A stretch of DNA of 35,476 bases from Dehalococcoidia bacterium (GTDB lineage: Bacteria > Chloroflexota > Dehalococcoidia > DSTF01 > JACRBR01): contig JBGQBE010000031.1 of assembly GCA_041494685.1 (NCBI GenBank), positions 1 through 35,476 of the forward strand, given 5' to 3'. Positions 133-13,211 of the stretch are shown in pieces. The notes under the pieces are model-generated. The model ran no database searches. It saw only the letters and a list, made by a program, of their open reading frames with translations, and was not told the DNA's origin. The position numbers and the translations under genes are program-made. Each line of letters opens with the position of its first letter. Within the stretch, counting starts at the first letter, position 1.

Positions 133-672
133 TTAGCGAGCGGCGCGGCGCCGCAGCGCGCCCGCGCCCATCAGCGCGGCGCCCGCAAGCGCGACCGCCA
201 GTGCGATTGGCGCGAACGGTGAGTCGCCGCCGGCCGTGGCGCCGGTGCCGGTGTTCGGCAGGTTCACCTCGGAGGCTACCTCGCCGCTGCCGACCACGAC
301 CGAGGCGGCGCAGCCCGTGCTGGCCGGAGATGCGGACACTTCCACCACACCCGCCTTGCTGCCGGAGTGCAGGGTGGCCGTGATCTGGCCCTGGGCGTTC
401 GTGACGCCGCTGTTCGGCGTAACGGTGGCGTCGCTGCCCGGCTGCTTCGTGACCTGCAGCGTCACAGCCTGGTTCGACGCAAGGTTGCCGTTGACGTCGC
501 GCACCGTGACCGTCAACGTGACGCTCCCGTTCGCGTTCGTCGTCGTCGCGCTCGTCGCGACGCTGCAATTGCCGTTCGGCGCCGGGTACTGCGCGTGCGC
601 GCCGCCAGCGTGGAACGCGGCCACCAGCACGGCGGACGAGATCAGTCCGGCGATCGTCAGCTTCGAAAACAT
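133..672 (-). CDS. Secreted single Ig-like (Big_1-type) surface protein with LPXTG sortase sorting signal
   Basis: Signal peptide ending AHA|Q; Big_1-like VTLTVTVRDVNGN...GVTNAQGQITATL; C-terminal LPNTG + hydrophobic helix + RRRAAR tail; SD AGGGAGGAAG upstream. Confidence 0.8.
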   Translation of the reverse strand: MFSKLTIAGLISSAVLVAAFHAGGAHAQYPAPNGNCSVATSATTTNANGSVTLTVTVRDVNGNLASNQAVTLQVTKQPGSDATVTPNSGVTNAQGQITATLHSGSKAGVVEVSASPASTGCAASVVVGSGEVASEVNLPNTGTGATAGGDSPFAPIALAVALAGAALMGAGALRRRAAR

Positions 673-1942: not shown

Positions 1943-2041
1943 ACATCGCTCCTCCGCTCCTCATCGCCCGTCGGCGAGATGATGACAGCGGCGGGAACAG
2001 CGCGCCAGCGGGACGGCGGACGTTTGCTCTGCGTGCAATGC

Positions 2042-3430
2042 TCAGGCGGGGGCGCCTGCCGCCCCGCCAGCGAGACGCCCCCGCGCGCGTTCGACGACGA
2101 TCCACGCGCGGGGCGCGATCGCGCCGGTGAAGGCGAGGAAGAGCAGGATGTTGATGCCCGCGCCCGCCAGGAACTCGGGATTCGCGTAGTGGAAACCGTC
2201 CCAGGACTTCACCGGCGGCGCAGCCCCGACCAGGTTGAAAAAGAACATCGCGCTCACCGGGACGTACAGCCGGAGCCAGCGCTGCTCGACGATCGCGACC
2301 GGCAGCAGCAGGCCCAGGAACGGGAAGAGATAGCGTTCGTGCGTCGTGACGGGCAACAGGTAGAACGCAAACGCCAGGTACGCCGCCGCGATCAGCGCGC
2401 CGCGCAGATCCGGCCGCGCCCAGGCGTACGCCAGGGCGATCGCCGCCGCGGCGGCGCTGAGCGCTATCCCCACCATGCGATACGTCGCGAAGAACAGCTC
2501 CGGGTCGTCGGCGGCCGGACGCGGCCCCGCGTCCCAGAAGCGCCAGAGGTTCCATGCCTCCCACGAGAGTTGCGGCGCCCGGTCGTGGAACAGCAGCCGG
2601 TAGACCTTCAAGATGCGGATCAGGTCGCCGTGCAGCAACCATGGCCCTGTCACCACGAGCCCCACGACCGCGCCCGCGGCGCCCGCTTCCAGCAGCGCGC
2701 GCACGCCCCCGCGCCGCACCGCGAGCAGCACGAGCAGCGGCAGTACGACCACGGGCTGCGGCTTCATCAGAAAGCCGAACGTCCACGCCGCGCCCGCGAG
2801 CCCCATACGCCCGCGGAACGCCAGCACGACGGCGGCCAACATCGCGATGGTCACGAGCGAATCCGTGTTGGGCCAGACCGCGCTGTCGTAGATAGCCGCG
2901 GGCTGCAGCGCGATCACCACCCCGGCGATCAGCGCAAGTCGCGTTGGGTTCGCTCGCGCGGCCGCGGGGTCTTCGCCGGCAAGGAGCCGCGTGACGGCGT
3001 ATACGGCGCCGACCAGCCCCAGGTCGAACAGGAGCATCGGCGCCTTCACCAGGAAATGCAACGCGCCGCCGGCGCCGTGCCCGTACGTGCCGCCGAACGA
3101 GGCGTAGACCGCCGAGAGCGGCCAGAGCACCCAGTGATAGCCGACGTAGTTCGTATCGGAGGTCCGAAAGACGTTCAGCACACCATGTTCGTGTATGGCC
3201 TGCATCCAGCCCTTCCAGTCCGACTCGTCGAGCGTGCCGTCGGGCAGGTAGGCGTACGCGGGCAGGAAGGGCAGCCGCACGAGCAGCGCCAGCACCAGGA
3301 CGCCGGCGAACGGCCGCCAGCCGCTCGTGAGCCACAGGACCAGCGGCGTATGCGCAGCGCGAGGTTGCGCCTGCGCGGATTGCGTCGGCTGCCGGTTCTC
3401 ACGTGGCAGTGACATCTTGGACACGGTCAT
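2042..3430 (-). CDS. Polytopic GT-C-fold glycosyltransferase (GT87/GT39-like mannosyltransferase)
   Basis: Many hydrophobic segments; motifs LVKAPMLLFD, PAAIYDSAVWPNTDS, MKPQ, THERYLFP typical of lipid-linked sugar transferases. Confidence 0.7.
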   Translation of the reverse strand: MTVSKMSLPRENRQPTQSAQAQPRAAHTPLVLWLTSGWRPFAGVLVLALLVRLPFLPAYAYLPDGTLDESDWKGWMQAIHEHGVLNVFRTSDTNYVGYHWVLWPLSAVYASFGGTYGHGAGGALHFLVKAPMLLFDLGLVGAVYAVTRLLAGEDPAAARANPTRLALIAGVVIALQPAAIYDSAVWPNTDSLVTIAMLAAVVLAFRGRMGLAGAAWTFGFLMKPQPVVVLPLLVLLAVRRGGVRALLEAGAAGAVVGLVVTGPWLLHGDLIRILKVYRLLFHDRAPQLSWEAWNLWRFWDAGPRPAADDPELFFATYRMVGIALSAAAAAIALAYAWARPDLRGALIAAAYLAFAFYLLPVTTHERYLFPFLGLLLPVAIVEQRWLRLYVPVSAMFFFNLVGAAPPVKSWDGFHYANPEFLAGAGINILLFLAFTGAIAPRAWIVVERARGRLAGGAAGAPA

Positions 3431-3536
3431 GCAGCCATCTTAACGTCCCGCGCCACGCTTCGTGCCACGCTCGCCGGACATCTCGCGTCAAGCACGCCCG
3501 CGGAACGGCGAGCGCGCCCCCGCAGCGACAAAGGTT

Positions 3537-3558
3537 GAGCGAGTACACGCACTCGCTC
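3537..3558 (-). terminator. Hairpin downstream of the cupredoxin gene
   Basis: GAGCGAGT-acacgc-ACTCGCTC 8-bp stem; weak U-tract. Confidence 0.35.
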
Positions 3559-3588
3559 CGCTCCGTCAGTCTCGGCGCTGATCGGCGG

Positions 3589-4149
3589 CTACTGCACGAT
3601 GAGTCCGCCGCGCATGCCGGACTGGTAGTGTCCCGGGACGTTGCACAGGTAAACATACTTCCCGGGCGCGAGCCTCATCGTCGCCTGCTTCACGTCCTTC
3701 GGCTCGATGTCGTCCGCTTCGCCGGGACTCGAGCCGGCGGATTCTTCATCGATCTTCCCGTCCTTCACCGGAAACGATGCCGGGTCGGCATCCGTCCGGA
3801 AGAGGACGAACTCGTGCTGCGTGGTGCCGGCGTTGATCACGTCGAACTTGATCTCGCCCGCCTTCAGGGGGCCGATGGCGGCGCTGCTTGGGCCCGTGAT
3901 CTTCCACTCGGACAGCGAGACCTCCACGGTCTGCTCCTTCTCGCTGTCGGGGCCGACGGGCCCCGCCGTCGGCGTCGGCGCGGCCGTGCCGGCGGCTGCG
4001 GAAGTCGTGGCAGCCGTCGTGGCGGCGGGCGCGGCCGTGCCCTCGTTGGATTTGCTGCTACTGCTTCCGCAGCCGACCGCGAGCGCCGCCATGCTCAGCG
4101 CCACGGCGGCCAGAACCAGACCCACCCTCGTCGTCCCTGACCGTTCCAT
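3589..4149 (-). CDS. Blue-copper (cupredoxin; auracyanin/sulfocyanin-like) lipoprotein
   Basis: Lipobox LAVGC; Ala/Thr/Pro linker; type-1 Cu ligands QHEF and YLCNVPGHYQSGM (C-x4-H-x4-M). Start ATG 4149 or TTG 4152. Confidence 0.85.
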   Translation of the reverse strand: MERSGTTRVGLVLAAVALSMAALAVGCGSSSSKSNEGTAAPAATTAATTSAAAGTAAPTPTAGPVGPDSEKEQTVEVSLSEWKITGPSSAAIGPLKAGEIKFDVINAGTTQHEFVLFRTDADPASFPVKDGKIDEESAGSSPGEADDIEPKDVKQATMRLAPGKYVYLCNVPGHYQSGMRGGLIVQ

Positions 4150-4301
4150 CAATTTCCTCTCTTGATAATTGCCGTCGAAGTGGGTGGATCATACTTGGCC
4201 GAACGCACAAGCGGAAAGCCGCGCCGCCGGCACTCGGACGCGGCTCGCTCAGGCGACTGGCGCGTGGGGGAAGGCGAAAGAACAACCGGCGCACAACGCG
4301 C

Positions 4302-4401: not shown

Positions 4402-5217
4402 TTACTTCAGCTTCGCCGCCGCCTGGTCGAGGAGCGGCAGTACTTCCTGCGCGTACGTCGCGATCGCCTTGACGTCCGTGGTGCTGGAGTCGGCTTCCTT
4501 CTCGATCGCCAACTCGCGCTGCTCGATCTGGTCAGCCAGCGCCGGGTCTACGGCCCGCGTCGCTTTGACGACCGCCTCCATTTGCGTGTCCATCGTGCCC
4601 TCGGTGTCGCGCGTACCTTGCACGTCACCGGCGTTCGCCTTGGCGATCACCGCATTCATGATCCCCTTGAGATCCTGAATGTCCTTAGCCAGCTCCGCCG
4701 CACTCGGGCCTGCGCCCGTAGAGACATCGAGCTTCAGCGCGATGACGATCTTGTCGAGCTGGGCCAGCGCGTCCGTCGCCTTCGCGGCGATCACGTTGAG
4801 ATCCGTCGTGCTGGCGTCGGCTTCCTTCTCGATCGCGAGCTCGTCCTGCTCGAGGGCGTCCGCGAGCGCAGGGTCGACGAGCCGCGTCGCCTTGATGGTC
4901 GCTTCCATCGACGTGTCCATCGTGGCCTCGGTGTCCTTCGTGCCCTGAAGGTCGCCGGCCTTGGCCTTCGTGACGACGTTCTGCAGAATCCCCTTCAGCA
5001 GCGTCACGTCATTCGCCAGCTCCTTTGGCTCGACCGTCGTCTCCGCCGCGGCGGTGGACGCCGTCGTCGCCGCGGCGGCTGGCTTGGTGGCGGCCGCAGC
5101 CGTCGTCGGCTTCGGTGCCGGGGTCGCCGTCTTGTCGCTGCTGCTACTTCCGCCGCAGGCGCCGGCGACCACCGCCAGTCCCACTATCACGCTCCCGATC
5201 AACAGCTGCTTCTTCAT
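4402..5217 (-). CDS. Lipoprotein with two tandem ~97-aa acidic helical repeats, function unknown
   Basis: Start MKKQ after GGAGGAGGAG; lipobox AGAC; A/T/P linker; repeats at 5022-4729 and 4695-4405, 61/97 identical by manual alignment. Confidence 0.8.
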   Translation of the reverse strand: MKKQLLIGSVIVGLAVVAGACGGSSSSDKTATPAPKPTTAAAATKPAAAATTASTAAAETTVEPKELANDVTLLKGILQNVVTKAKAGDLQGTKDTEATMDTSMEATIKATRLVDPALADALEQDELAIEKEADASTTDLNVIAAKATDALAQLDKIVIALKLDVSTGAGPSAAELAKDIQDLKGIMNAVIAKANAGDVQGTRDTEGTMDTQMEAVVKATRAVDPALADQIEQRELAIEKEADSSTTDVKAIATYAQEVLPLLDQAAAKLK

Positions 5218-5292
5218 GACCTTCTCCTCCTCCTTCGAACTCGCTCCGAGCTCCCTGTACGTACCCGATTCCATTCGCGCCAGACTTTGCGT

Positions 5293-5730
5293 CTACTTCT
5301 TCGCCTGGATGAACGCGATCAGCTTCTGCAGGTCGTCGTCCGAGAGCATGCTCGTCGTGAACGCCGGCATGCCCTTCGGCCCGTCCCTCACCTTCGTCTT
5401 GATCTTGGTTGCGCTCGCATCGGTCAGGTCCTTGCCGACGGCTCCGCCGCTGCCGCTGGGGCTGTGGCAGCTCGCGCAACCGTACTGGAAGAAAAGCAGC
5501 CGCCCATCGTGCACCGGGTCGCCCGTCTGGGCGTCCTGCGGCTTCGCGAGCGGCATACCCTCGAAGAGGTACTCGTCGCCGATGTACGCAACCTTCGTAC
5601 GAGTGTAGCCCGCGGCGCTCGCAAGGTTGCCGTGGGTATACGGGCTGCGGGCAACGATGATGGCGATGATGGTGATCGCGAGACCGCTCATCCCGATCGC
5701 CAGCACCATGGGAACAAGAAATCGTCTCAT
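5293..5730 (-). CDS. Membrane-anchored monoheme cytochrome c
   Basis: N-terminal TM helix, CASCH heme motif, distal Met in KGMPAF; ATGA overlap with the upstream gene. Confidence 0.88.
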   Translation of the reverse strand: MRRFLVPMVLAIGMSGLAITIIAIIVARSPYTHGNLASAAGYTRTKVAYIGDEYLFEGMPLAKPQDAQTGDPVHDGRLLFFQYGCASCHSPSGSGGAVGKDLTDASATKIKTKVRDGPKGMPAFTTSMLSDDDLQKLIAFIQAKK

Positions 5731-6317
5731 CGCACACTTCCCCGTCCAGCGGGCACCGCCAGCGCCAGACCGTCGGCCCTCCCCGCCCTGGCAATACGGA
5801 TGATCGTCACGCCGATAAAGATCAGCGTCCCCCAGACGACCGTGAGCAGTCCCATGATCAGCCATGAGTTCAGCCCGGGGACCTGGATGCCCGCCTTCTG
5901 CACGTACATCTGGGGCGCTGCGCCGTCAACAGCGATCGCGGCCGTCGTTTGTTCCACGGCGCTGCCGGCGGACCCGGTGTAGTCGACACGGATGTCGTGG
6001 GTGCCGCTCTCACGCGGCACAAATGAAATCGCCGCGACGCCCGCGCTGTTGGTGACGGCTCGTCCGATCTCCATGAAGCCATCGACCCGACCGAACGTCG
6101 CGTGCGCGTAGAACGTCACGCTCACTCCCGCGACCGGCGCGCCGGTGTCGGCGGACGTCACGGCTGCGTCGACCTCACTCGGCTGGCCAACCAGAGCGGT
6201 GGTCGGTTCGCTGACGCGCGTGAGCAGATGCGAGGCGTGCGCGGTGGTGGCCGCGGATCCGAGCGCGAGTACCGTGCACGTGAGAAGTCCTGCAGCTATC
6301 AACACCAACCGCTTCAT
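5727..6317 (-). CDS. Exported Ig-like beta-sandwich protein with C-terminal TM anchor
   Basis: Signal peptide (AHA|S); GAPVAGVSVTFY...AVTNSAGVAAISF beta pattern; C-terminal hydrophobic helix; ATGA overlaps at both ends. Confidence 0.7.
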   Translation of the reverse strand: MKRLVLIAAGLLTCTVLALGSAATTAHASHLLTRVSEPTTALVGQPSEVDAAVTSADTGAPVAGVSVTFYAHATFGRVDGFMEIGRAVTNSAGVAAISFVPRESGTHDIRVDYTGSAGSAVEQTTAAIAVDGAAPQMYVQKAGIQVPGLNSWLIMGLLTVVWGTLIFIGVTIIRIARAGRADGLALAVPAGRGSVR

Positions 6318-7672
6318 ACCGCACCTCCCGCTGGTTCGCCGGCGAGCTGTGACCGCACGCCTGGCAACGACTCCGCGATTGCTGTCTGGGATTCTTCGCG
6401 CTGCTCCGTGATCTCCCAGATGGCAAGCAGCGGAAAGACTTTCACGAAGAGGGTGATCAACAGGCCGAACAGCGCGAAGGACGCTGCGATGATGGACCAC
6501 TCGACCCAGGTCGGGCCGTAGTTTCGCGGCTCATACGGCATCAGCGGCACGCGCAGGGTCGCGACGACGATAAAGTAACGCTCGATCCACATGGCGACAT
6601 CGATGAGGAACGCGGCGGCGACGACGCCCCAGATGTTCCGCGTCCACGGGATCAGGATGAGCAGCGGCGGGATGACGAGTCCGCCGATGAAGTAGTACCA
6701 GTAGAATCCCGCGAACTGGCCCAGGAAGAGTTCGCGGAAGTGGAACTCTACGCCCGCCTCCATCTTGTAACCGGTGGTGATGTACTCGGACAGGTTGCCG
6801 TAGATCATGATCAGCGCCATCGCCGCGAGCAGGTAGCCCAGGTACACGAAGTGCTTCTCAAGGATGTACTCCTCGAGGTGGTACACCTTCCGCAGGATCG
6901 CCATGATGATGACCAGCGTCGCGACGCCCGAGAAAATAGCGCCGGCCACGAAGAACGCGCCGAAGATCGTGCTGTTCCAGCCGACGCGCAGGTTCATCGC
7001 GAAGATCCACGAGACCACCGTGTGCACCGATACCGCGATCGGGATGATGAGGATCATCATCGTGGCGATGATCGTCGCGAGCATGCTGCGCTGGCGGCTT
7101 TCGCCCGTCCAGCCGATCGCCAGCACGCTGTAGAGCCACTTGCGCCAGCCCGTCGTCCGGTCGCGGAAGATCGCCAGGTCGGGGATCATCGGCAGGCCCA
7201 GATAGGTGATGCTCGCCGTCAGGTACGTGGTGATGGCGACGACGTCCCAGATGATCGGCGACTGCCAGCGGCCGTACAGGATTACGTTCTGCACCCGGTC
7301 CGGCCGGCCGAGGTCGATGATCGGGAACAGCGCGCCGCAGCACAGCGCCACGACGGTGACGAACTCAGCCATGCGCGTCACCGGCGTGCGCCAACCCGCC
7401 TTCGACACGCGCAGGATCGCCGAGATGAGCGTGCCGGCATGGCTGATGCCGATGAAGAACACGAAGTTTGTGATGTAGAAGCCCCACGAGATGCGGTCGC
7501 GCAAGCCGGTGACGATCAGCCCGTCGCGCAACTGCACGTAATACGCGTAGCCGCCCCACGCGATGACCGCGAGCAGGAAGGAAAGCCACACCCAGTAGAT
7601 CTTGCTCGTGTGCGCGATCGGCGCGTAGGTCGTGTCCTCCAGCCGTTGCCGCCAGGGGCCTATCGCTTCCAT
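6314..7672 (-). CDS. NrfD/PsrC-family quinone-interacting membrane subunit, ActC-like
   Basis: WGFYITNFVFFIGISHAGTLISAILR, RMAE, DLGRP, SPIIWD, SVHTVVS, WIERYFIVV, YGPTWVEW; about 10 TM; start MEAIG after GGGGGCGAAG. Confidence 0.9.
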   Translation of the reverse strand: MEAIGPWRQRLEDTTYAPIAHTSKIYWVWLSFLLAVIAWGGYAYYVQLRDGLIVTGLRDRISWGFYITNFVFFIGISHAGTLISAILRVSKAGWRTPVTRMAEFVTVVALCCGALFPIIDLGRPDRVQNVILYGRWQSPIIWDVVAITTYLTASITYLGLPMIPDLAIFRDRTTGWRKWLYSVLAIGWTGESRQRSMLATIIATMMILIIPIAVSVHTVVSWIFAMNLRVGWNSTIFGAFFVAGAIFSGVATLVIIMAILRKVYHLEEYILEKHFVYLGYLLAAMALIMIYGNLSEYITTGYKMEAGVEFHFRELFLGQFAGFYWYYFIGGLVIPPLLILIPWTRNIWGVVAAAFLIDVAMWIERYFIVVATLRVPLMPYEPRNYGPTWVEWSIIAASFALFGLLITLFVKVFPLLAIWEITEQREESQTAIAESLPGVRSQLAGEPAGGAV

Positions 7673-8610
7673 GTCTTCGCCCCCTTCGCTCGCTGCACCC
7701 AGGGCCACACGGTCGCCATGCGTCCCTTCTTCGCTGAATCCCGCCCGACGAACTCGCCGTGGCCGGGGACGTAATAGACGCGCGGCTTCGTGCCCAGGTC
7801 TTCCTTGAGGTTGTAGGCCTCGTGCTCCGAGAGGAACCGGCTGACGGACACGATATCCTTGCCGTTGGTGGCGACGTCCTGCTCGAGGTCGCCGTAGTAG
7901 ATCGCCTTGTTCGGGCACCCCTGAGCGCAGTACGGCAACGTGCCGGCCCGCGCCATGTCGGGGCAGAAGTCGCACTTCATCACGGTGCCCCTCTTCGCCG
8001 GCGTCTGGTGCTCGATGTCGTAGTGCGCGAGCATCGCTTCCGGCGGAATCGGCGCGTCGCCCCAGTTGAAGAAGCGTCGGTCGTAGGGGCACGCCGCCAT
8101 GCAGATGCGACAGCCGATGCAGCGGTTCTGGTCGATCAGGATGCTGCCTTCCGGCGTCGCGAAGGTCGCGCCGACGGGGCAGACGTTGGTGCACGGCGGG
8201 TTCTGGCACTGCTGGCACGGCGCCGGGATGAACTGCGTCCCGCCGCCATGCAGCGGTGCCTCGAAGACCTCGATCCACTGCATCGGCTCCGGGGCGAAGT
8301 GCCCTTCGATGCAGGCGGTCGTGCACTGCGGCGGCTTGCCGACACTCTGGCAGCCGTCACAGTAGCGCAGGTCGATGATCATCGTCCAGCGGCGCACACG
8401 GCCGTTCGGCGCGAGCGCCGGGTCGTAGTCGGCGCGGACGGGGCCCTTGCGGGGCGCGAGCACCGAGCTCAGCACATTCGGCAGAAGCGGGAGCGGTGCC
8501 ACGCTCAGCGCACCCAGCCCGAAGAGCTTGAGCATGCGCCGGCGGCCCACCTTGCCGTCCGGTTGTCCGGTCTGCTCCTGTGCCAGCGAGAGGTCCTGAT
8601 TCGTCTCCAT
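7660..8610 (-). CDS. TAT-exported four-cluster [4Fe-4S] protein (NrfC/DmsB/DsrO-like)
   Basis: GRRRMLKLF twin-arginine signal; 16 Cys in four groups (CDGC-x8-CTTAC, CQQC-x4-CTNVCP, CIGCRICMAACP, CDFC-x11-CAQGCP); LGTKPRVYY. Confidence 0.92.
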   Translation of the reverse strand: METNQDLSLAQEQTGQPDGKVGRRRMLKLFGLGALSVAPLPLLPNVLSSVLAPRKGPVRADYDPALAPNGRVRRWTMIIDLRYCDGCQSVGKPPQCTTACIEGHFAPEPMQWIEVFEAPLHGGGTQFIPAPCQQCQNPPCTNVCPVGATFATPEGSILIDQNRCIGCRICMAACPYDRRFFNWGDAPIPPEAMLAHYDIEHQTPAKRGTVMKCDFCPDMARAGTLPYCAQGCPNKAIYYGDLEQDVATNGKDIVSVSRFLSEHEAYNLKEDLGTKPRVYYVPGHGEFVGRDSAKKGRMATVWPWVQRAKGAKTWKR

Positions 8611-8813: not shown

Positions 8814-9518
8814 ATGCAAGACACAGCGCAACCAGAACGCATCCGCATCATCATCGCCGAGGACCACGCGGTGGTCCGTGAAGGGACGCGCCAGCTGCTG
8901 GAACGCGAACCTGACCTGGAGGTGGTGGGCGAGGCGGCAGACGGCGCACAGGCGGTAGCCCTTGTCGAGCAGTTCCGCCCGGACGTCGCCATCATGGACA
9001 TCTCGATGCCGGTGATGACCGGCATCGAGGCCACGAAGCGGATCAAGGCCAGCCACCCGGCGACCGCCATCCTGATCCTCTCGGCGTACGACGACGACCA
9101 GTACGTCTTCGCGCTGCTCGCCGCCGGGGCTGCCGGCTACCTCCTGAAGGACGTGCCGTCCGCGGAACTGGTGCGCGCGGTACGGCTGGTGCACGCCGGC
9201 GAACCGGTGCTGCATCCGGCCATCGCCCGCAAAGTGCTCGCCCGGTTCGCAACACCGTCGGGGCAGCCGGCAGCCGCCCCACCGACAGGAGAGCCCGCGC
9301 GGCTGCTACTCACCGACCGGGAGCAGGAGGTCCTCCAGCTTGCCGCCTGCGGGCTGAGCAACGCCGAGATCTCGGCGCGGCTCTATCTCAGCATCAGGAC
9401 CGTGCAGGTGCACCTGACGCACATTTTCGGCAAGCTGGGCGTCGGATCGCGCACGGAAGCCGTGATCGCCGGCTTGCGAAGCGGCCTGCTCAAACTGGAG
9501 GACCTGGGTGAAGACTGA
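8814..9518 (+). CDS. NarL/FixJ-family response regulator (REC + LuxR HTH)
   Basis: AEDH, DVAIMDISMP, GYLLK; LTDREQEVL...SNAEIS...RTVQVHLTHIFGKLGV. Confidence 0.95.
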   Translation: MQDTAQPERIRIIIAEDHAVVREGTRQLLEREPDLEVVGEAADGAQAVALVEQFRPDVAIMDISMPVMTGIEATKRIKASHPATAILILSAYDDDQYVFALLAAGAAGYLLKDVPSAELVRAVRLVHAGEPVLHPAIARKVLARFATPSGQPAAAPPTGEPARLLLTDREQEVLQLAACGLSNAEISARLYLSIRTVQVHLTHIFGKLGVGSRTEAVIAGLRSGLLKLEDLGED

Positions 9519-11079
9519 GATGGAGCTCGCCGCGACCCGGTCGCCCGCGCAGCTCCCCGCCCGGCTCGCGCACGACATCATGGTGCCGATCCGCCGGCTG
9601 CCCGACCGCCTGCATGACGGCCGCTTCTGGCGGATCCAGTTGATGGTGTTCGCGGCGACGGCCCCGCACTACATCATCGAAACCGTCGGCTTCACGAATC
9701 CGTTCGAGACCTTCCACGGCCTGGCGATCACCCTCTATGTGATCCCGCTCCTCTACGCCGCCATCGCCTTCGGCTGGGAAGGCGCCATCCTCACTGCGGT
9801 CTGGATCGTGGTGCTCACGTCGCCCAGCATGTGGGTGTGGCACCGATCGTCGTACCACTGGCTGACCGAGGTCGGGCAGCTGGCGATTACGCTGCCCGCC
9901 GGCATCATGGTCGCCTGGCGCGTGGATCTCGAATCGAAGCAGCGCCAGCGCGCCGAGCAGACCAGCGCGAGCCTCGGCCTCCTCAACGAGATCGGCGAGC
10001 GGCTGAGCCACACCCTTGACGTCGAACAAGCGCTCCCGGGAGTCGTGGCGCTCCTGGTCAGCGAGCTGCCGGTCGACGCCGTCTGGCTGTGCCTGGAGCC
10101 GGAGTCCCCCGGCGGCGAGCGGAGGGTGATCCGGGAGATGCGGCATCCAGCCGCGGGGCGAGCGGACGTCGACGTAGACCGGCTGCACGAGATCGCGGCC
10201 GCGACGCGCGAGCCCGTGCGGCTCGGCGGACGCGTCGTCGCCGTGCCGCTTTCCGGCGAGGGCGGCATCCTCGGGTCGCTGGGTGCGGCCATGCCCGAGG
10301 GGTATGCATTTACCGATGACCAGGAGAAGCTGCTGGCGACCGTGGCCCATGAGATCCGCGTGGCCGTCGAGAACGGGCGGCTGTACCAGCAACGCCAGGA
10401 GAGCCTGCAAACGTACGCACGGCAGGTGACGCAAGCGCAGGAGGACGAGCGCCTGCGCATCTCTCGCGAACTGCACGACGAGACCGCGCAGGAACTGGTG
10501 CACATCGTGCGACGGATCGAGCGACTGGGCGAAGCCGCCCACGCCGACGTGCCAAAGCAGGTCGACGAACTGCTGACGCTGGCGCGCGGTACGCTGCAGT
10601 CCGTCCGGCGCTTCAGCCGCGATCTGCGGCCGTCGGTCCTCGACGACCTGGGCCTGGTGCCGGCGATCGAGCTGGCGGTAGAGGCGACGAACACGCGGCT
10701 GCCCGGCGGCGCGAAGCTCGACGTGACAGGGGAGCCGCGGCGGCTTGGACCGGCGGTGGAACTGGCGCTGTTTCGGATCGCGCAGGAGGCCCTGCACAAC
10801 GTCGAAAAGCACGCCGAGGCCACGTCGGCGTCCGTACAGCTCGCGTTCGAGCAGGGCGCGGTCCGGCTCGACGTCACGGACGACGGCCGCGGCTGCGAGC
10901 TGCCGCAGCACGTCTCTCAGCTGGCGCGCAAGGGGAAGCTCGGCGTCCTCGGCATGAAGGAGCGCGCGGAACTGGTCGGCGGGTCGTTCGACTTCAGCTC
11001 CATACCGGGTCAGGGCAGCCGGGTCAGCGTCGTGGTGACGCAGGACGAGGCTGAAGACGCGCGGATCCCCATGCGCTGA
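9508..11079 (+). CDS. Membrane sensor histidine kinase (TM domain + GAF + HisKA_3 + HATPase)
   Basis: About 4 N-terminal TMs; ELHDETAQ H-box; LRPSVLDDLGL; QEALHNVEKH; DDGRG; GMKERAELVGG. Start GTG 9508 or ATG 9520. Confidence 0.92.
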   Translation: MKTEMELAATRSPAQLPARLAHDIMVPIRRLPDRLHDGRFWRIQLMVFAATAPHYIIETVGFTNPFETFHGLAITLYVIPLLYAAIAFGWEGAILTAVWIVVLTSPSMWVWHRSSYHWLTEVGQLAITLPAGIMVAWRVDLESKQRQRAEQTSASLGLLNEIGERLSHTLDVEQALPGVVALLVSELPVDAVWLCLEPESPGGERRVIREMRHPAAGRADVDVDRLHEIAAATREPVRLGGRVVAVPLSGEGGILGSLGAAMPEGYAFTDDQEKLLATVAHEIRVAVENGRLYQQRQESLQTYARQVTQAQEDERLRISRELHDETAQELVHIVRRIERLGEAAHADVPKQVDELLTLARGTLQSVRRFSRDLRPSVLDDLGLVPAIELAVEATNTRLPGGAKLDVTGEPRRLGPAVELALFRIAQEALHNVEKHAEATSASVQLAFEQGAVRLDVTDDGRGCELPQHVSQLARKGKLGVLGMKERAELVGGSFDFSSIPGQGSRVSVVVTQDEAEDARIPMR

Positions 11080-11221
11080 TCCCGTCCTCCACGCGACGGA
11101 ACCCGCATGCGTCCCGAGTTCCTGACATCTCGCAGCGGCGTTCGGAGCCGGATGGCCCTGTGAGCGTACGCGGCGCCACGACTACGCTGTGAAGAGGCAG
11201 TACGGGTGCGTGGAGGTACGT

Positions 11222-11710
11222 ATGAGGATCGCACTCGTGTTCGCAGCGGTCGTCGCGACTGCGGCGCTGACGGCCGGCATCGCATGCGGCGGCGACAGCA
11301 AGAGCGCCGCGCCAACGGCCGCGCCAACGGCGGTGCCGACCGGCGGCGGATATCCCGACAAGCTGCAGCTCACCGACAGCGACAACGGCAGGACCGTGCA
11401 GCTCGCGCGGGGCGGCCAGGTGATCGTGACGCTCGAAAGCAATCCATCCACCGGCTTCAGCTGGTATGTCGCCGGCATGGCCGGACCGGAGCTTGAGTTG
11501 GCCGGCGAGCCCCGATACGTGCCGCCTGTTTCGGCGACACCTGTTACAGGAGCGAGCGGCGCGCAGGTCTTCACGTTCCGCGCGACCGGCGTGGGGATGC
11601 CACCCGCCGGCACGCCGGCCGTCGTCCAGGTGGAGATCGACTACAAGCGGAGCTTCGAGCCGGACGTGCCGCCCGAGAAGAGCTTCCGATTCACCGTCGA
11701 GATCAGGTGA
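11222..11710 (+). CDS. Chagasin-like I42 cysteine protease inhibitor lipoprotein
   Basis: Lipobox GIAC; hallmark ESNPSTGFSW, GASG, YKRSFE; SD GGAGG. Confidence 0.85.
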   Translation: MRIALVFAAVVATAALTAGIACGGDSKSAAPTAAPTAVPTGGGYPDKLQLTDSDNGRTVQLARGGQVIVTLESNPSTGFSWYVAGMAGPELELAGEPRYVPPVSATPVTGASGAQVFTFRATGVGMPPAGTPAVVQVEIDYKRSFEPDVPPEKSFRFTVEIR

Positions 11711-11825
11711 GCGGCAGTGTCCGTCAGCGGCGGCTCCAGCGCCGGGCGACGAGCCAGCCTCCCGCCGCCCGGAGGATGTTTCATCCGAATCGCTAGCAGG
11801 TGCTTCGGCCGGCCGCGACGGAGCG

Positions 11826-13211
11826 CTACTGGGGCAGCACGATGAGGTGCGAGCCTGCTGCCAGCGCGCCCGCGACGGTCTGGAATATGCTGGTCAGCTG
11901 CGATGTCTTGGGAAGGCAGAAGAAGTGGTCCCCATCGGTGTTCTCCGCACTCGTGCAGCCGTTGTCGACCGACGTCGTCGCCATGTCCGCGAGGAGCGTC
12001 GTGGCGGGCTTGTTCTTGTACGTACCCGACGAATCGGGACACACGTCGGTGCCGGCCAGGCCAAAGCCGATCGTAAAGATCTCGATGCCCGCGGTCTTGG
12101 ACGTCTGCGCCTCGTTGAAGGCCGCTTGACACGTGAAGTCGCTCGCTGTGCCGGCACTGCTGAAGTTCGGGGTGCCGTCCGTCTCCAGGATGATCCCCTT
12201 CTTTGCGCCCGCGCGGCCGTTGGCGAGCAGATACTGCCTGGCCATCTTGACCGGCGTTGAGAGATTCGTACCGGTGCCGGACGTGTTGAAGCAGTTGATC
12301 GCCTTCACCAGCGTACTGCTGGTGTTGAGCGTCCCGTTCGCGTTCAGGTAGGCCTCGTTGACGGGCGCGCCCGTACCGCTCAATCCCACGGGGACCCACT
12401 TCGAGACGGTCGTCGTGTCGTACTGACCGCTGCTCGCGGCGAGGCCAAACGCGCCGGAGTTCGCGCCGGTGCACGACGATGTAGTCTGGCTGGGCCCGAG
12501 CAGCCCGAGCGCGATCCACTGGAGCTTCGGGTCCCACGTCTGCAGGATGGCGTTGCCGGCGGCCCGCGCGTTCGTCAGGTCCGTGCTACTCATGCTTCCG
12601 GTGCGGTCCATGATGAGCACGGCATCGACGAGCCCGCTCGGCGGTCCGCCGCACGAGCCTCTACACGCAGCACTGGTGACGCTCCCGGTGCTGCCCTGCT
12701 TGATGCCGACAGCCGGCGCGAGCAGGTAGTTCACGGTGTTGCTGGCGCTCACGACGATGACGTTGCACTTGTCTCCATTCGCCGGGACGCACGGGCTCAC
12801 GGCGAGGCCGTTCTTCACGAACCAGCTGGCATCGGCTTTCGGATCGCACGACGCCGGTATGTCGGCGGCATCGGGGATGCCGTCGCCGTTCCGGTCTCCG
12901 ACGAGGCAGCGGAAGCTCACGCTCACCTTGGCGGCCGTCAGCGCCTTGTCGTTCGACAGCGTGTACTGGAGCGCAACCGACGCGGCGTTCACGGTGTCAT
13001 CGGGCAGCAACTGGGCGCCGGCCAGCGCGCCCGCGTCGACCGCGCCCTGGACGCTCTGGCGCTCGTGGATCATGAAACCCAGGTCAACGGCGAGCGCCCC
13101 CATCCCGAGGACGATCGTCAGCACCAAGGCTGCCAGCACCAGCATCTGGCCTCGTTCGTGCGACGGCGAGGACGGCTCGCCACGGCGTCGGATGCGCATC
13201 ATCATGCCCAC
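11826..13211 (-). CDS. TadG-like pseudopilin with vWA domain
   Basis: ERGQ prepilin site + hydrophobic helix, DAGALAGA Tad motif, MIDAS-like DRTGS, GTN, ETDG, IFTIGFG; Cys-rich. Confidence 0.82.
   Translation of the reverse strand: MGMMMRIRRRGEPSSPSHERGQMLVLAALVLTIVLGMGALAVDLGFMIHERQSVQGAVDAGALAGAQLLPDDTVNAASVALQYTLSNDKALTAAKVSVSFRCLVGDRNGDGIPDAADIPASCDPKADASWFVKNGLAVSPCVPANGDKCNVIVVSASNTVNYLLAPAVGIKQGSTGSVTSAACRGSCGGPPSGLVDAVLIMDRTGSMSSTDLTNARAAGNAILQTWDPKLQWIALGLLGPSQTTSSCTGANSGAFGLAASSGQYDTTTVSKWVPVGLSGTGAPVNEAYLNANGTLNTSSTLVKAINCFNTSGTGTNLSTPVKMARQYLLANGRAGAKKGIILETDGTPNFSSAGTASDFTCQAAFNEAQTSKTAGIEIFTIGFGLAGTDVCPDSSGTYKNKPATTLLADMATTSVDNGCTSAENTDGDHFFCLPKTSQLTSIFQTVAGALAAGSHLIVLPQ

Follow-up and report, generated by a model that had tools for sequence, protein, structure and literature searches.

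A two-bundle acidic lipoprotein behind cytochrome c as a candidate cation-binding accessory of a minimal alternative complex III-like module in Dehalococcoidia

In the genome of a Dehalococcoidia bacterium (assembly GCA_041494685.1), a 271-residue lipoprotein, P0001, is encoded at the end of an operon for membrane redox proteins. The locus raises the question of what a protein made of two acidic repeats, neither of which contains Cys or His, does behind a cytochrome c. The window, that is, the whole stretch of DNA analysed, is 35,476 nucleotides long (positions 1 to 35,476 of contig JBGQBE010000031.1), and the gene occupies positions 4402-5217 of its minus strand, stop codon included. An original prediction had each repeat form a helical bundle with a metal site, serving as substrate-binding subunit or metallochaperone of a redox module reminiscent of FtrABCD iron systems. 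We place the protein, with high confidence, as a dedicated outer-face accessory of a mini-alternative complex III (ACIII) module. That it is a cation-binding accessory with a carboxylate groove in each bundle is the reading that we favour tentatively, at somewhat less than an even chance, from sequence conservation.

The open reading frame spans 4402-5274, and the ATG at 5217 is the likely start, a strong Shine-Dalgarno sequence, AAGGAGGAGGAG, being located six bases 5′ of it. The GC content at third codon positions is 0.87, and this value, together with 66 homologues recovered in a first search, indicates that the gene is real. According to translation and alignment, residues 1-21 (5155-5217) form a signal peptide ending in a lipobox (…VVAGA-C21-GG), which presumably fits the PROSITE lipobox rule. 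Each of the 24 two-repeat homologues in the alignment retains A20, C21 and G22, and a lipobox is common to all family members. The protein, as was originally proposed, is thus predicted by alignment to be a bacterial lipoprotein. The signal is followed by a flexible tether rich in Ala, Thr and Pro (residues 22-65, 5023-5154), which varies in length and sequence across homologues, and then by repeat 1 (residues 66-162, 4732-5022, net charge −8) and repeat 2 (residues 175-271, 4405-4695, net charge −7). The repeats align without gaps and are identical at 61 of 97 positions; their BLOSUM62 local score is 296, compared to 40.1 ± 7.4 (maximum 66) in 300 shuffles. Both conserved blocks quoted in the original prediction are present in both repeats, the first as TEATMDTSMEA in one and TEGTMDTQMEA in the other, the second as VDPALADALEQDELAIEKE in one and VDPALADQIEQRELAIEKE in the other. 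No C, H, F or W occurs within residues 61-271, and Cys21 of the lipobox is the sole Cys of the protein. The duplication and the absence of Cys and His from the repeats therefore stand as first described.

Window proteins were run by tblastn on 27 related loci (5 genomes and 22 metagenomes). The cytochrome c gene was found directly upstream of the lipoprotein gene in 26 of the 27, while the contig of the remaining locus (L041) begins at the lipoprotein gene. Genes of an iron-sulphur (FeS) protein and of an NrfD-family protein precede it wherever the contig extends so far. The downstream neighbours differ and are unrelated from locus to locus, which indicates that the lipoprotein gene ends the operon. 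Membership in a redox module, claimed from the window alone, is thus borne out by the constant position behind cytochrome c.

The module itself is encoded on the minus strand at 5293-8610. The FeS protein (7660-8610, 316 residues) is of the NrfC/PsrB/DsrO type and Tat-exported, as judged by Pfam, an RRR Tat motif and the motifs formed by its 16 Cys. It belongs to the four-cluster type and matches NrfC, PsrB and DsrO, and it aligns only to residues ~680-990 of ActB, the C-terminal FeS domain. The membrane subunit (6314-7672; NrfD, 6.2e-27) is a quinol-interacting NrfD-family protein of the ActC type, matching ActC chains 8k9e_C, 6lod_C, 6f0k_C and 6btm_C over nearly the full length with E values of 1.3e-62 to 2.4e-58. 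Next comes a protein with a signal peptide, an Ig-like domain (Big_3_5, 1e-5, below the Pfam cutoff) and a C-terminal transmembrane (TM) helix (5727-6317); 15 loci encode it, and 6 have no such gene between NrfD and cytochrome c. The last gene before the lipoprotein (5293-5730; Cytochrome_CBB3, 1.4e-13) encodes a membrane-anchored monoheme cytochrome c with an N-terminal TM helix, the motif C85xxC88H89 and Met121. The operon therefore resembles ACIII in its ActC-type NrfD, its counterpart of the ActB C-terminal domain and its monoheme cytochrome c. It differs in that a Pfam scan of the operon revealed neither pentahaem ActA nor molybdopterin-like ActB1, ActD or a second NrfD (ActF); one NrfD, one monoheme cytochrome c and no multihaem protein are present in 5293-8610. 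In the absence of these components, the operon corresponds to a minimal ACIII-like quinol:cytochrome c module. A further difference from ACIII is the lipoprotein, which is lipid-tethered on a long linker and has one to three repeats.

The position and charge of the lipoprotein immediately bring up its main rival reading, in which it is a cofactor-less extrinsic subunit that docks on the lysine face of cytochrome c or on the basic FeS subunit and stabilises, orients or gates electron transfer, like PsbQ/CyanoQ or ActH of Rhodothermus. We consider this possible, though on the whole doubtful. In its favour are the strict adjacency to cytochrome c and the charges of the partners. An alignment of 21 cytochrome c sequences revealed conserved K100, K109, K113, R115, K119 and K136 around the Met121 loop, and the mature FeS subunit has an isoelectric point of 8.3, compared to 4.3-4.5 for the repeats. 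ACIII consists of ActABCDEF, with ActG and ActH as lineage-specific additions, and ActH provides a precedent for a helical accessory of this kind: it is described in PMC5928083 as an all-helical periplasmic subunit of Rhodothermus ACIII, and the authors of that study detected no homologue of it in other organisms. A four-chain complex prediction (FeS protein 58-316, NrfD 15-425, cytochrome c 27-145 and the lipoprotein) gave no answer (score 0.00) and speaks neither for nor against binding.

AlphaFold2 was run on residues 63-271 with an alignment of 78 family sequences. The model (mean pLDDT 93.4, pTM 0.55) consists of two four-helix bundles joined by a less certain linker, with the helices of repeat 1 at model residues 2-24, 28-52, 54-71 and 78-98. 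The pTM value implies that the mutual orientation of the two bundles is not fixed. Repeat 2 alone was predicted with pLDDT 97.6 and pTM 0.88, again as four helices, with a short kink at G207-T208-M209. The proposal that each repeat is a helical bundle is thus upheld by predictions with pLDDT of 93-98 and four helices each. A known metal-protein relative, which the same structural check might have provided, did not emerge, as Foldseek returned no match at E ≤ 1e-3 for either the two-repeat or the single-repeat model. The weak matches include EfeO 7wgu (E 0.02, TMq 0.39 with the two-repeat model; TMq 0.75 and rank 40 with the single repeat), 7q1g (E 0.034) and SMBP (E 0.14); as a group, EfeO, EfeM and Algp7 score at E 0.02-0.4, level with the alpha-catenin M domain. 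Cytochrome b562 and designed diiron bundles are also among the structural matches. The best VIA-align match, the GIT1 FAT domain, has a Z of 12.5, below the ~13 that is the noise level of the tool for helical bundles.

The most recurrent named family among the structural matches is PsbQ/CyanoQ (4yuu_Q2, 8iwh, 6j3y, 8xr6, 3zsu and 9grx_6), and this recurrence counts for a docking subunit. PsbQ′ 4yuu_Q2 was aligned by VIA-align with Z 12.3 and a root-mean-square deviation of 2.2 Å over 98 residues, and CyanoQ 3zsu reaches TMq 0.68. PsbQ and CyanoQ, extrinsic subunits of photosystem II with PsbQ-like counterparts in NDH, are likewise up-down four-helix bundles; they measure ~100 residues and sit on a membrane redox complex at its outer (P) face, and CyanoQ is lipid-anchored. 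Against such a kinship, there is no sequence similarity and no Pfam PsbQ match for the lipoprotein or for any of the 78 members, the complex and the phylum context are other ones, and the matches, including a PsbQ-type Foldseek E of 0.067, remain inside the helical-bundle noise. As far as the models go, the structural matches are generic up-down four-helix bundles, and kinship is established by none of them.

Conservation was computed over 96 unique repeat units and is given here in the numbering of repeat 1. Carboxylates of the ExxE type, emphasised in the original prediction, turned out to be the best-conserved feature: E123 is present in a fraction of 1.00, D120 in 0.94, D101 and E130 in 0.93 each and E126 in 0.89, followed by D155 (0.86), D134 (0.85), E105 (0.84, with H in 0.12), D95 (0.76) and E97 (0.75). 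Three other conserved positions are likely helix N-caps, namely D89 in AGD (0.98), D115 in VDP (0.81) and D139 in TTD (1.00). Exchange between D and E is rare at conserved acidic positions. Net charge averages −10 per unit, with values from −22 to −5, and conserved basic positions number only about six. The invariance of individual D and E positions, which goes beyond charge alone, speaks against a subunit that merely docks.

The methionines behave differently from what had been predicted. M occupies position 100 in just 0.52 of units, with G in 0.26 and A in 0.12; at position 104 it is found in 0.53, with I in 0.32 and L in 0.14. No position covaries more strongly with core residue I129 than Met100, M/I being swapped for G/Y, and such a size-compensating core swap identifies Met100 as a packing residue. 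Judged from the alignment, MxxxM is a packing trait of the subgroup to which the lipoprotein belongs and not a conserved site. The claim of a conserved MxxxM motif was therefore abandoned, and with it that of a Met pair as a Cu(I) site.

Where the conserved carboxylates lie was assessed with helical wheels and covariation. E97, D101 and E105 of helix 2, as well as D120, E123, E126 and E130 of helix 3, are at +49 to +169 degrees from the hydrophobic moment, which puts them on the flank or outer face of the helices rather than in the core. Covariation, which with an effective number of sequences (Neff) of 38 is weak and confounded by phylogeny, connects the minus sides of helices 3 and 4 (A128, E132 and D125, each with K146) and of helices 1 and 2 (I77-M100 and V71-T99); between helices 2 and 3 it connects residues at the same level (M100-I129, E105-L127 and E97-D134). 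Since the minus sides are paired elsewhere in an antiparallel bundle, the plus faces of helices 2 and 3 would share a groove. About eight conserved carboxylates thus appear to line one helix 2-helix 3 groove per bundle, and the only conserved basic residues of this putative groove, K/R94 and R112, are at its ends. The predicted convergence of Glu and Met residues on one site may accordingly hold for Glu and Asp; it does not extend to Met, which is variable and, at position 100, in the core.

A divergent subset of bundles, designated type B, comprises repeat 1 of P0027, P0047, P0052 and P0070 and the single bundles of P0076 and P0083. Compared by eye, they differ at precisely the positions discussed for the groove: all six have H in place of E105 and Y or F in place of E97, and four of the six have H in place of L127; P0108 and P0110 are further type B-like cases. 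That Glu, His and Tyr replace one another at given positions is suggestive of metal ligands. The changes from E to H and from E to Y lose charge, a point that sits badly with docking through an acidic surface. In one sequence, the single-bundle protein P0074, the D-T-E-G/A segment of helix 2 is replaced by C-A-T-C (CxxC).

The number of bundles varies. Among 85 proteins with a repeat match, one bundle was found in 53, two in 31 and three in 1. At L041 (17-1643), a second two-bundle family gene lies directly behind the first, giving four bundles in total; the first bundle of its product, P0089, has lost several conserved acidic residues. In a quick IQ-TREE tree of 99 repeat units, the repeats of P0067 group together with a support of 99, and repeats of the same protein are also sisters in P0068, P0013 (84) and P0023 (86), which indicates that duplication occurred several times, independently. 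The window protein has its two repeats in different clades, both shared with P0002-P0009. One to three bundles on a long flexible tether would be odd for a subunit of fixed geometry, and together with the second gene copy at one locus they argue for a function scaled by capacity over a fixed-geometry docking role.

These features lead to the cation-binding reading. In each bundle, E97, D101 and E105 from helix 2 and D120, E123, E126, E130 and D134 from helix 3 would form a groove able to bind cations, among which hard metals such as Fe, Mn or Ca are the likeliest. Tethered by ~45 residues, the protein would hold or present the metal beside cytochrome c and could serve the quinol:cytochrome c module as a donor or acceptor of metal, or by buffering it. 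We favour this reading because single D/E positions are invariant, because many conserved carboxylates lack a conserved basic partner, because the type B substitutions are of ligand type and because copy number varies. Several points weigh against it. Neither by fold nor by sequence does the protein match a known metal-binding family significantly; Foldseek gave nothing at E ≤ 1e-3, and the best VIA-align score is in the noise. The conservation of acidic residues is partly structural, since D89, D115 and D139 are probable N-caps. The single-groove geometry derives from helical wheels and the phylogeny-confounded covariation. A site made of carboxylates only is unselective, so that the identity of the metal is a guess. 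Finally, an acidic patch can equally serve for docking a lysine-rich cytochrome, and the basic residues of this cytochrome c are conserved.

What occupies the same position in operons that lack the lipoprotein bears on a third reading. Among 401 genomes sampled across the phylum, a bundle match was obtained only in the genome of the window. Matches in 19 other genomes of the sample were rejected, as they are confined to the signal and linker (query positions ~1-100) and do not involve the bundles. When the cytochrome c alignment was searched in the same 401 genomes, full-length homologues (37-43% identity) were found in five genomes without the lipoprotein (G293, G355, G291, G026 and G307), where the genes are ordered NrfD, Ig-like protein, cytochrome c and a further gene, X. 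In 6 of 6 scanned cases X encodes a lipoprotein redox carrier: an EB_dh/DOMON-type protein at L066, cupredoxins at L070 and L082, a protein with five cytochrome c domains at L069, and, at L067 and L083, helical proteins with a C-terminal CNSCH or CNACH and matches to Cytochrom_C_2 with E values of 2e-3 to 3e-3, below the cutoff. At L068 there is no callable gene after cytochrome c. The presence of tethered carriers in these distant operons marks the position after cytochrome c as a slot for a tethered partner of the cytochrome.

By this parallel, the lipoprotein could itself be a tethered electron carrier with a non-covalent cofactor, either haem b between bundles, ligated by bis-Met as in bacterioferritin or by bis-His in type B, or a redox metal centre. 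We regard this as quite unlikely. The slot proteins speak for it, above all the two helical ones with CNSCH and CNACH, which share with the lipoprotein the slot, the lipid tether and the expected fold class. So do His105 and often His127 of type B, located at the same level on neighbouring helices, and the Met at both positions 100 and 104 in each repeat of the window protein. However, these repeats contain no His or Cys, Met is not conserved and Met100 packs the core. The class II cytochrome c'-like lipoproteins differ in their C-terminal CxxCH, which is absent from the window protein, and hhalign found no homology between it and them (probability below 3%). Moreover, the lipoprotein coexists with true carriers: a cupredoxin is encoded in the window, and at L031 (5906-7604) genes for an EB_dh protein (haem b type) and a HmuY-like protein lie between cytochrome c and the lipoprotein. 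In one clade, then, the slot is filled by an acidic bundle free of cofactor motifs, sometimes beside true carriers, and the variety of slot proteins suggests that Chloroflexota have a modular system for electron exit.

The cupredoxin of the window was at the base of a fourth reading, in which the lipoprotein is a Met/Glu chaperone of Cu(I) or Fe for the cupredoxin or part of an iron uptake system similar to FtrABCD or EfeUOB. L036 matches the window colinearly at 84-88% nucleotide identity but lacks positions 2020-4298. This strain-specific cassette of 2.3 kb, on the minus strand downstream of the lipoprotein gene, contains a type-1 cupredoxin lipoprotein (3589-4152) with C-x4-H-x4-M copper ligands and a membrane protein of 462 residues (2042-3430) that is GT87-like (atlas score 0.99, a lead only). 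Among the loci with downstream DNA, another cupredoxin behind the lipoprotein gene occurs only at L042, where it is partial. The cupredoxin and the GT87-like gene are outside the conserved unit, and the cupredoxin context, absent from the closest relative, was dropped as a functional link. The lipoprotein and the cupredoxin both have tethers rich in Thr, Ala and Pro; as a speculation, the GT-C enzyme of the cassette might glycosylate such linkers.

Beyond the two cupredoxins, the fourth reading could draw on the weak Foldseek matches to EfeO, EfeM and Algp7. Like the lipoprotein, these are extracytoplasmic proteins of two four-helix bundles; they have carboxylate-rich metal sites, and HxxE is the hallmark motif of their family (Peptidase_M75). 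The window protein contains no His and hence no HxxE, PF09375 has no match at E ≤ 0.01 in it or in any of the 78 members, and the operon has no EfeU/Ftr1 permease and no EfeB. FtrABCD shares with the window a cupredoxin and an FeS protein, but the Pfam families of the operon are NrfD, Fer4, cytochrome c and Ig-like only, with no Ftr1-type permease or P19; nor do Ftr1 or P19 domains occur in the 78 members. Furthermore, the FeS protein is of the Tat-exported NrfC/ActB type and not a membrane polyferredoxin, the membrane subunit is an ActC-type NrfD, so that both are of the ACIII/NrfCD kind and not FtrD/FtrC, and the cupredoxin is not conserved together with the lipoprotein. Since the methionines are not conserved either, conservation and synteny largely refute a Cu(I)- or Ftr-type role, which we consider very improbable, and the FtrABCD analogy of the original prediction is given up.

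Searches for relatives revealed a small family. A HMMER scan of 1.84 billion cluster representatives gave 25 matches at E ≤ 1e-3, and a profile search gave 104 proteins (90% clustering) and no link to a known family. The few named records of the family all come from Chloroflexi/Dehalococcoidia metagenome-assembled genomes, and the sequencing runs that carry matching DNA are sediment or wetland metagenomes. Pfam and NCBIfam contain no family for the window protein and none that is consistent among the 78 members; New_glue matches in Pfam sit on the low-complexity linker and were discarded as spurious. A sequence-profile search of the PDB yielded nothing meaningful (syntaxin at E 0.038, the remaining matches covering the signal peptide only), and in a protein atlas only unnamed clusters were found, with scores ≤ 0.90. 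One family record, P0116, on a contig of 710 nucleotides, has a single bundle followed by the last ~45 residues of cytochrome c; it is probably a chimera of assembly or gene calling rather than a real fusion. A search of article texts in the literature found no description of the family or of this type of operon, and no such complex is described in the part of an NrfD review (PMC8076601) available to us. The bundle protein belongs to no described family, and the operon is a variant of the ACIII/NrfCD kind.

Upstream of the operon, a divergent two-component system of the NarL type is encoded on the plus strand (8814-11079), with a response regulator at 8814-9518 and a histidine kinase at 9508-11079. 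Such a system is present in 7 of the 9 loci that are long enough upstream. The kinase contains TM segments, a HisKA_3 domain and a weak match to GAF, whose E of 6.5e-4 to 1.3e-3 does not reach the cutoff. By eye there are several TM segments and no sizeable outer-face domain is apparent, so that the kinase may sense a membrane or cytoplasmic signal. Haem-copper oxidase and cytochrome b genes occur in the same genome, along with two further NrfD genes, which suggests that the operon adds a regulated branch to other routes.

Elsewhere in the window, an Ig-like (Big_1) surface protein (133-672, minus strand) ends in LPNTG, a hydrophobic stretch and a basic tail, and this C-terminus looks like a sortase anchoring signal. 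The LPNTG signal and the tethering of every outer-face component are consistent with a cell without an outer membrane. Beyond the two-component system, 11189-13211 encodes a chagasin-type inhibitor lipoprotein (Inhibitor_I42, 4e-18) and a TadE/VWA protein of the Tad pilus type.

The respiratory chains of Chloroflexota, bacteria that abound in sediments, are poorly described. The operon presents itself as a stripped-down relative of ACIII whose tethered outer-face lipoproteins are swapped between lineages. An extension of the cation-binding reading, which we consider unlikely, is that the protein represents a new class in which the bound Fe or Mn is itself the redox partner of the membrane-anchored cytochrome c. 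If so, a minimal ACIII-type quinone module would enable single-membrane sediment Chloroflexota to oxidise Fe(II) or Mn(II) at their surface, or to reduce the oxidised forms there, a path of metal redox without an outer-membrane porin-cytochrome or Cyc2. The His/Tyr bundles of type B would then tune metal preference or potential, and the number of repeats would tune capacity. ACIII has been proposed for reverse electron flow in iron oxidisers (PMC13741234), and this proposal may keep such a metal-redox role open. Binding of metal by the bundle could thus amount to a new coupling of metal redox to the quinone pool without an outer membrane, while a docking subunit only would be a lineage-specific accessory like ActH, of specialist interest. 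Either way, the lipoprotein represents an unannotated protein family with a clear partner.

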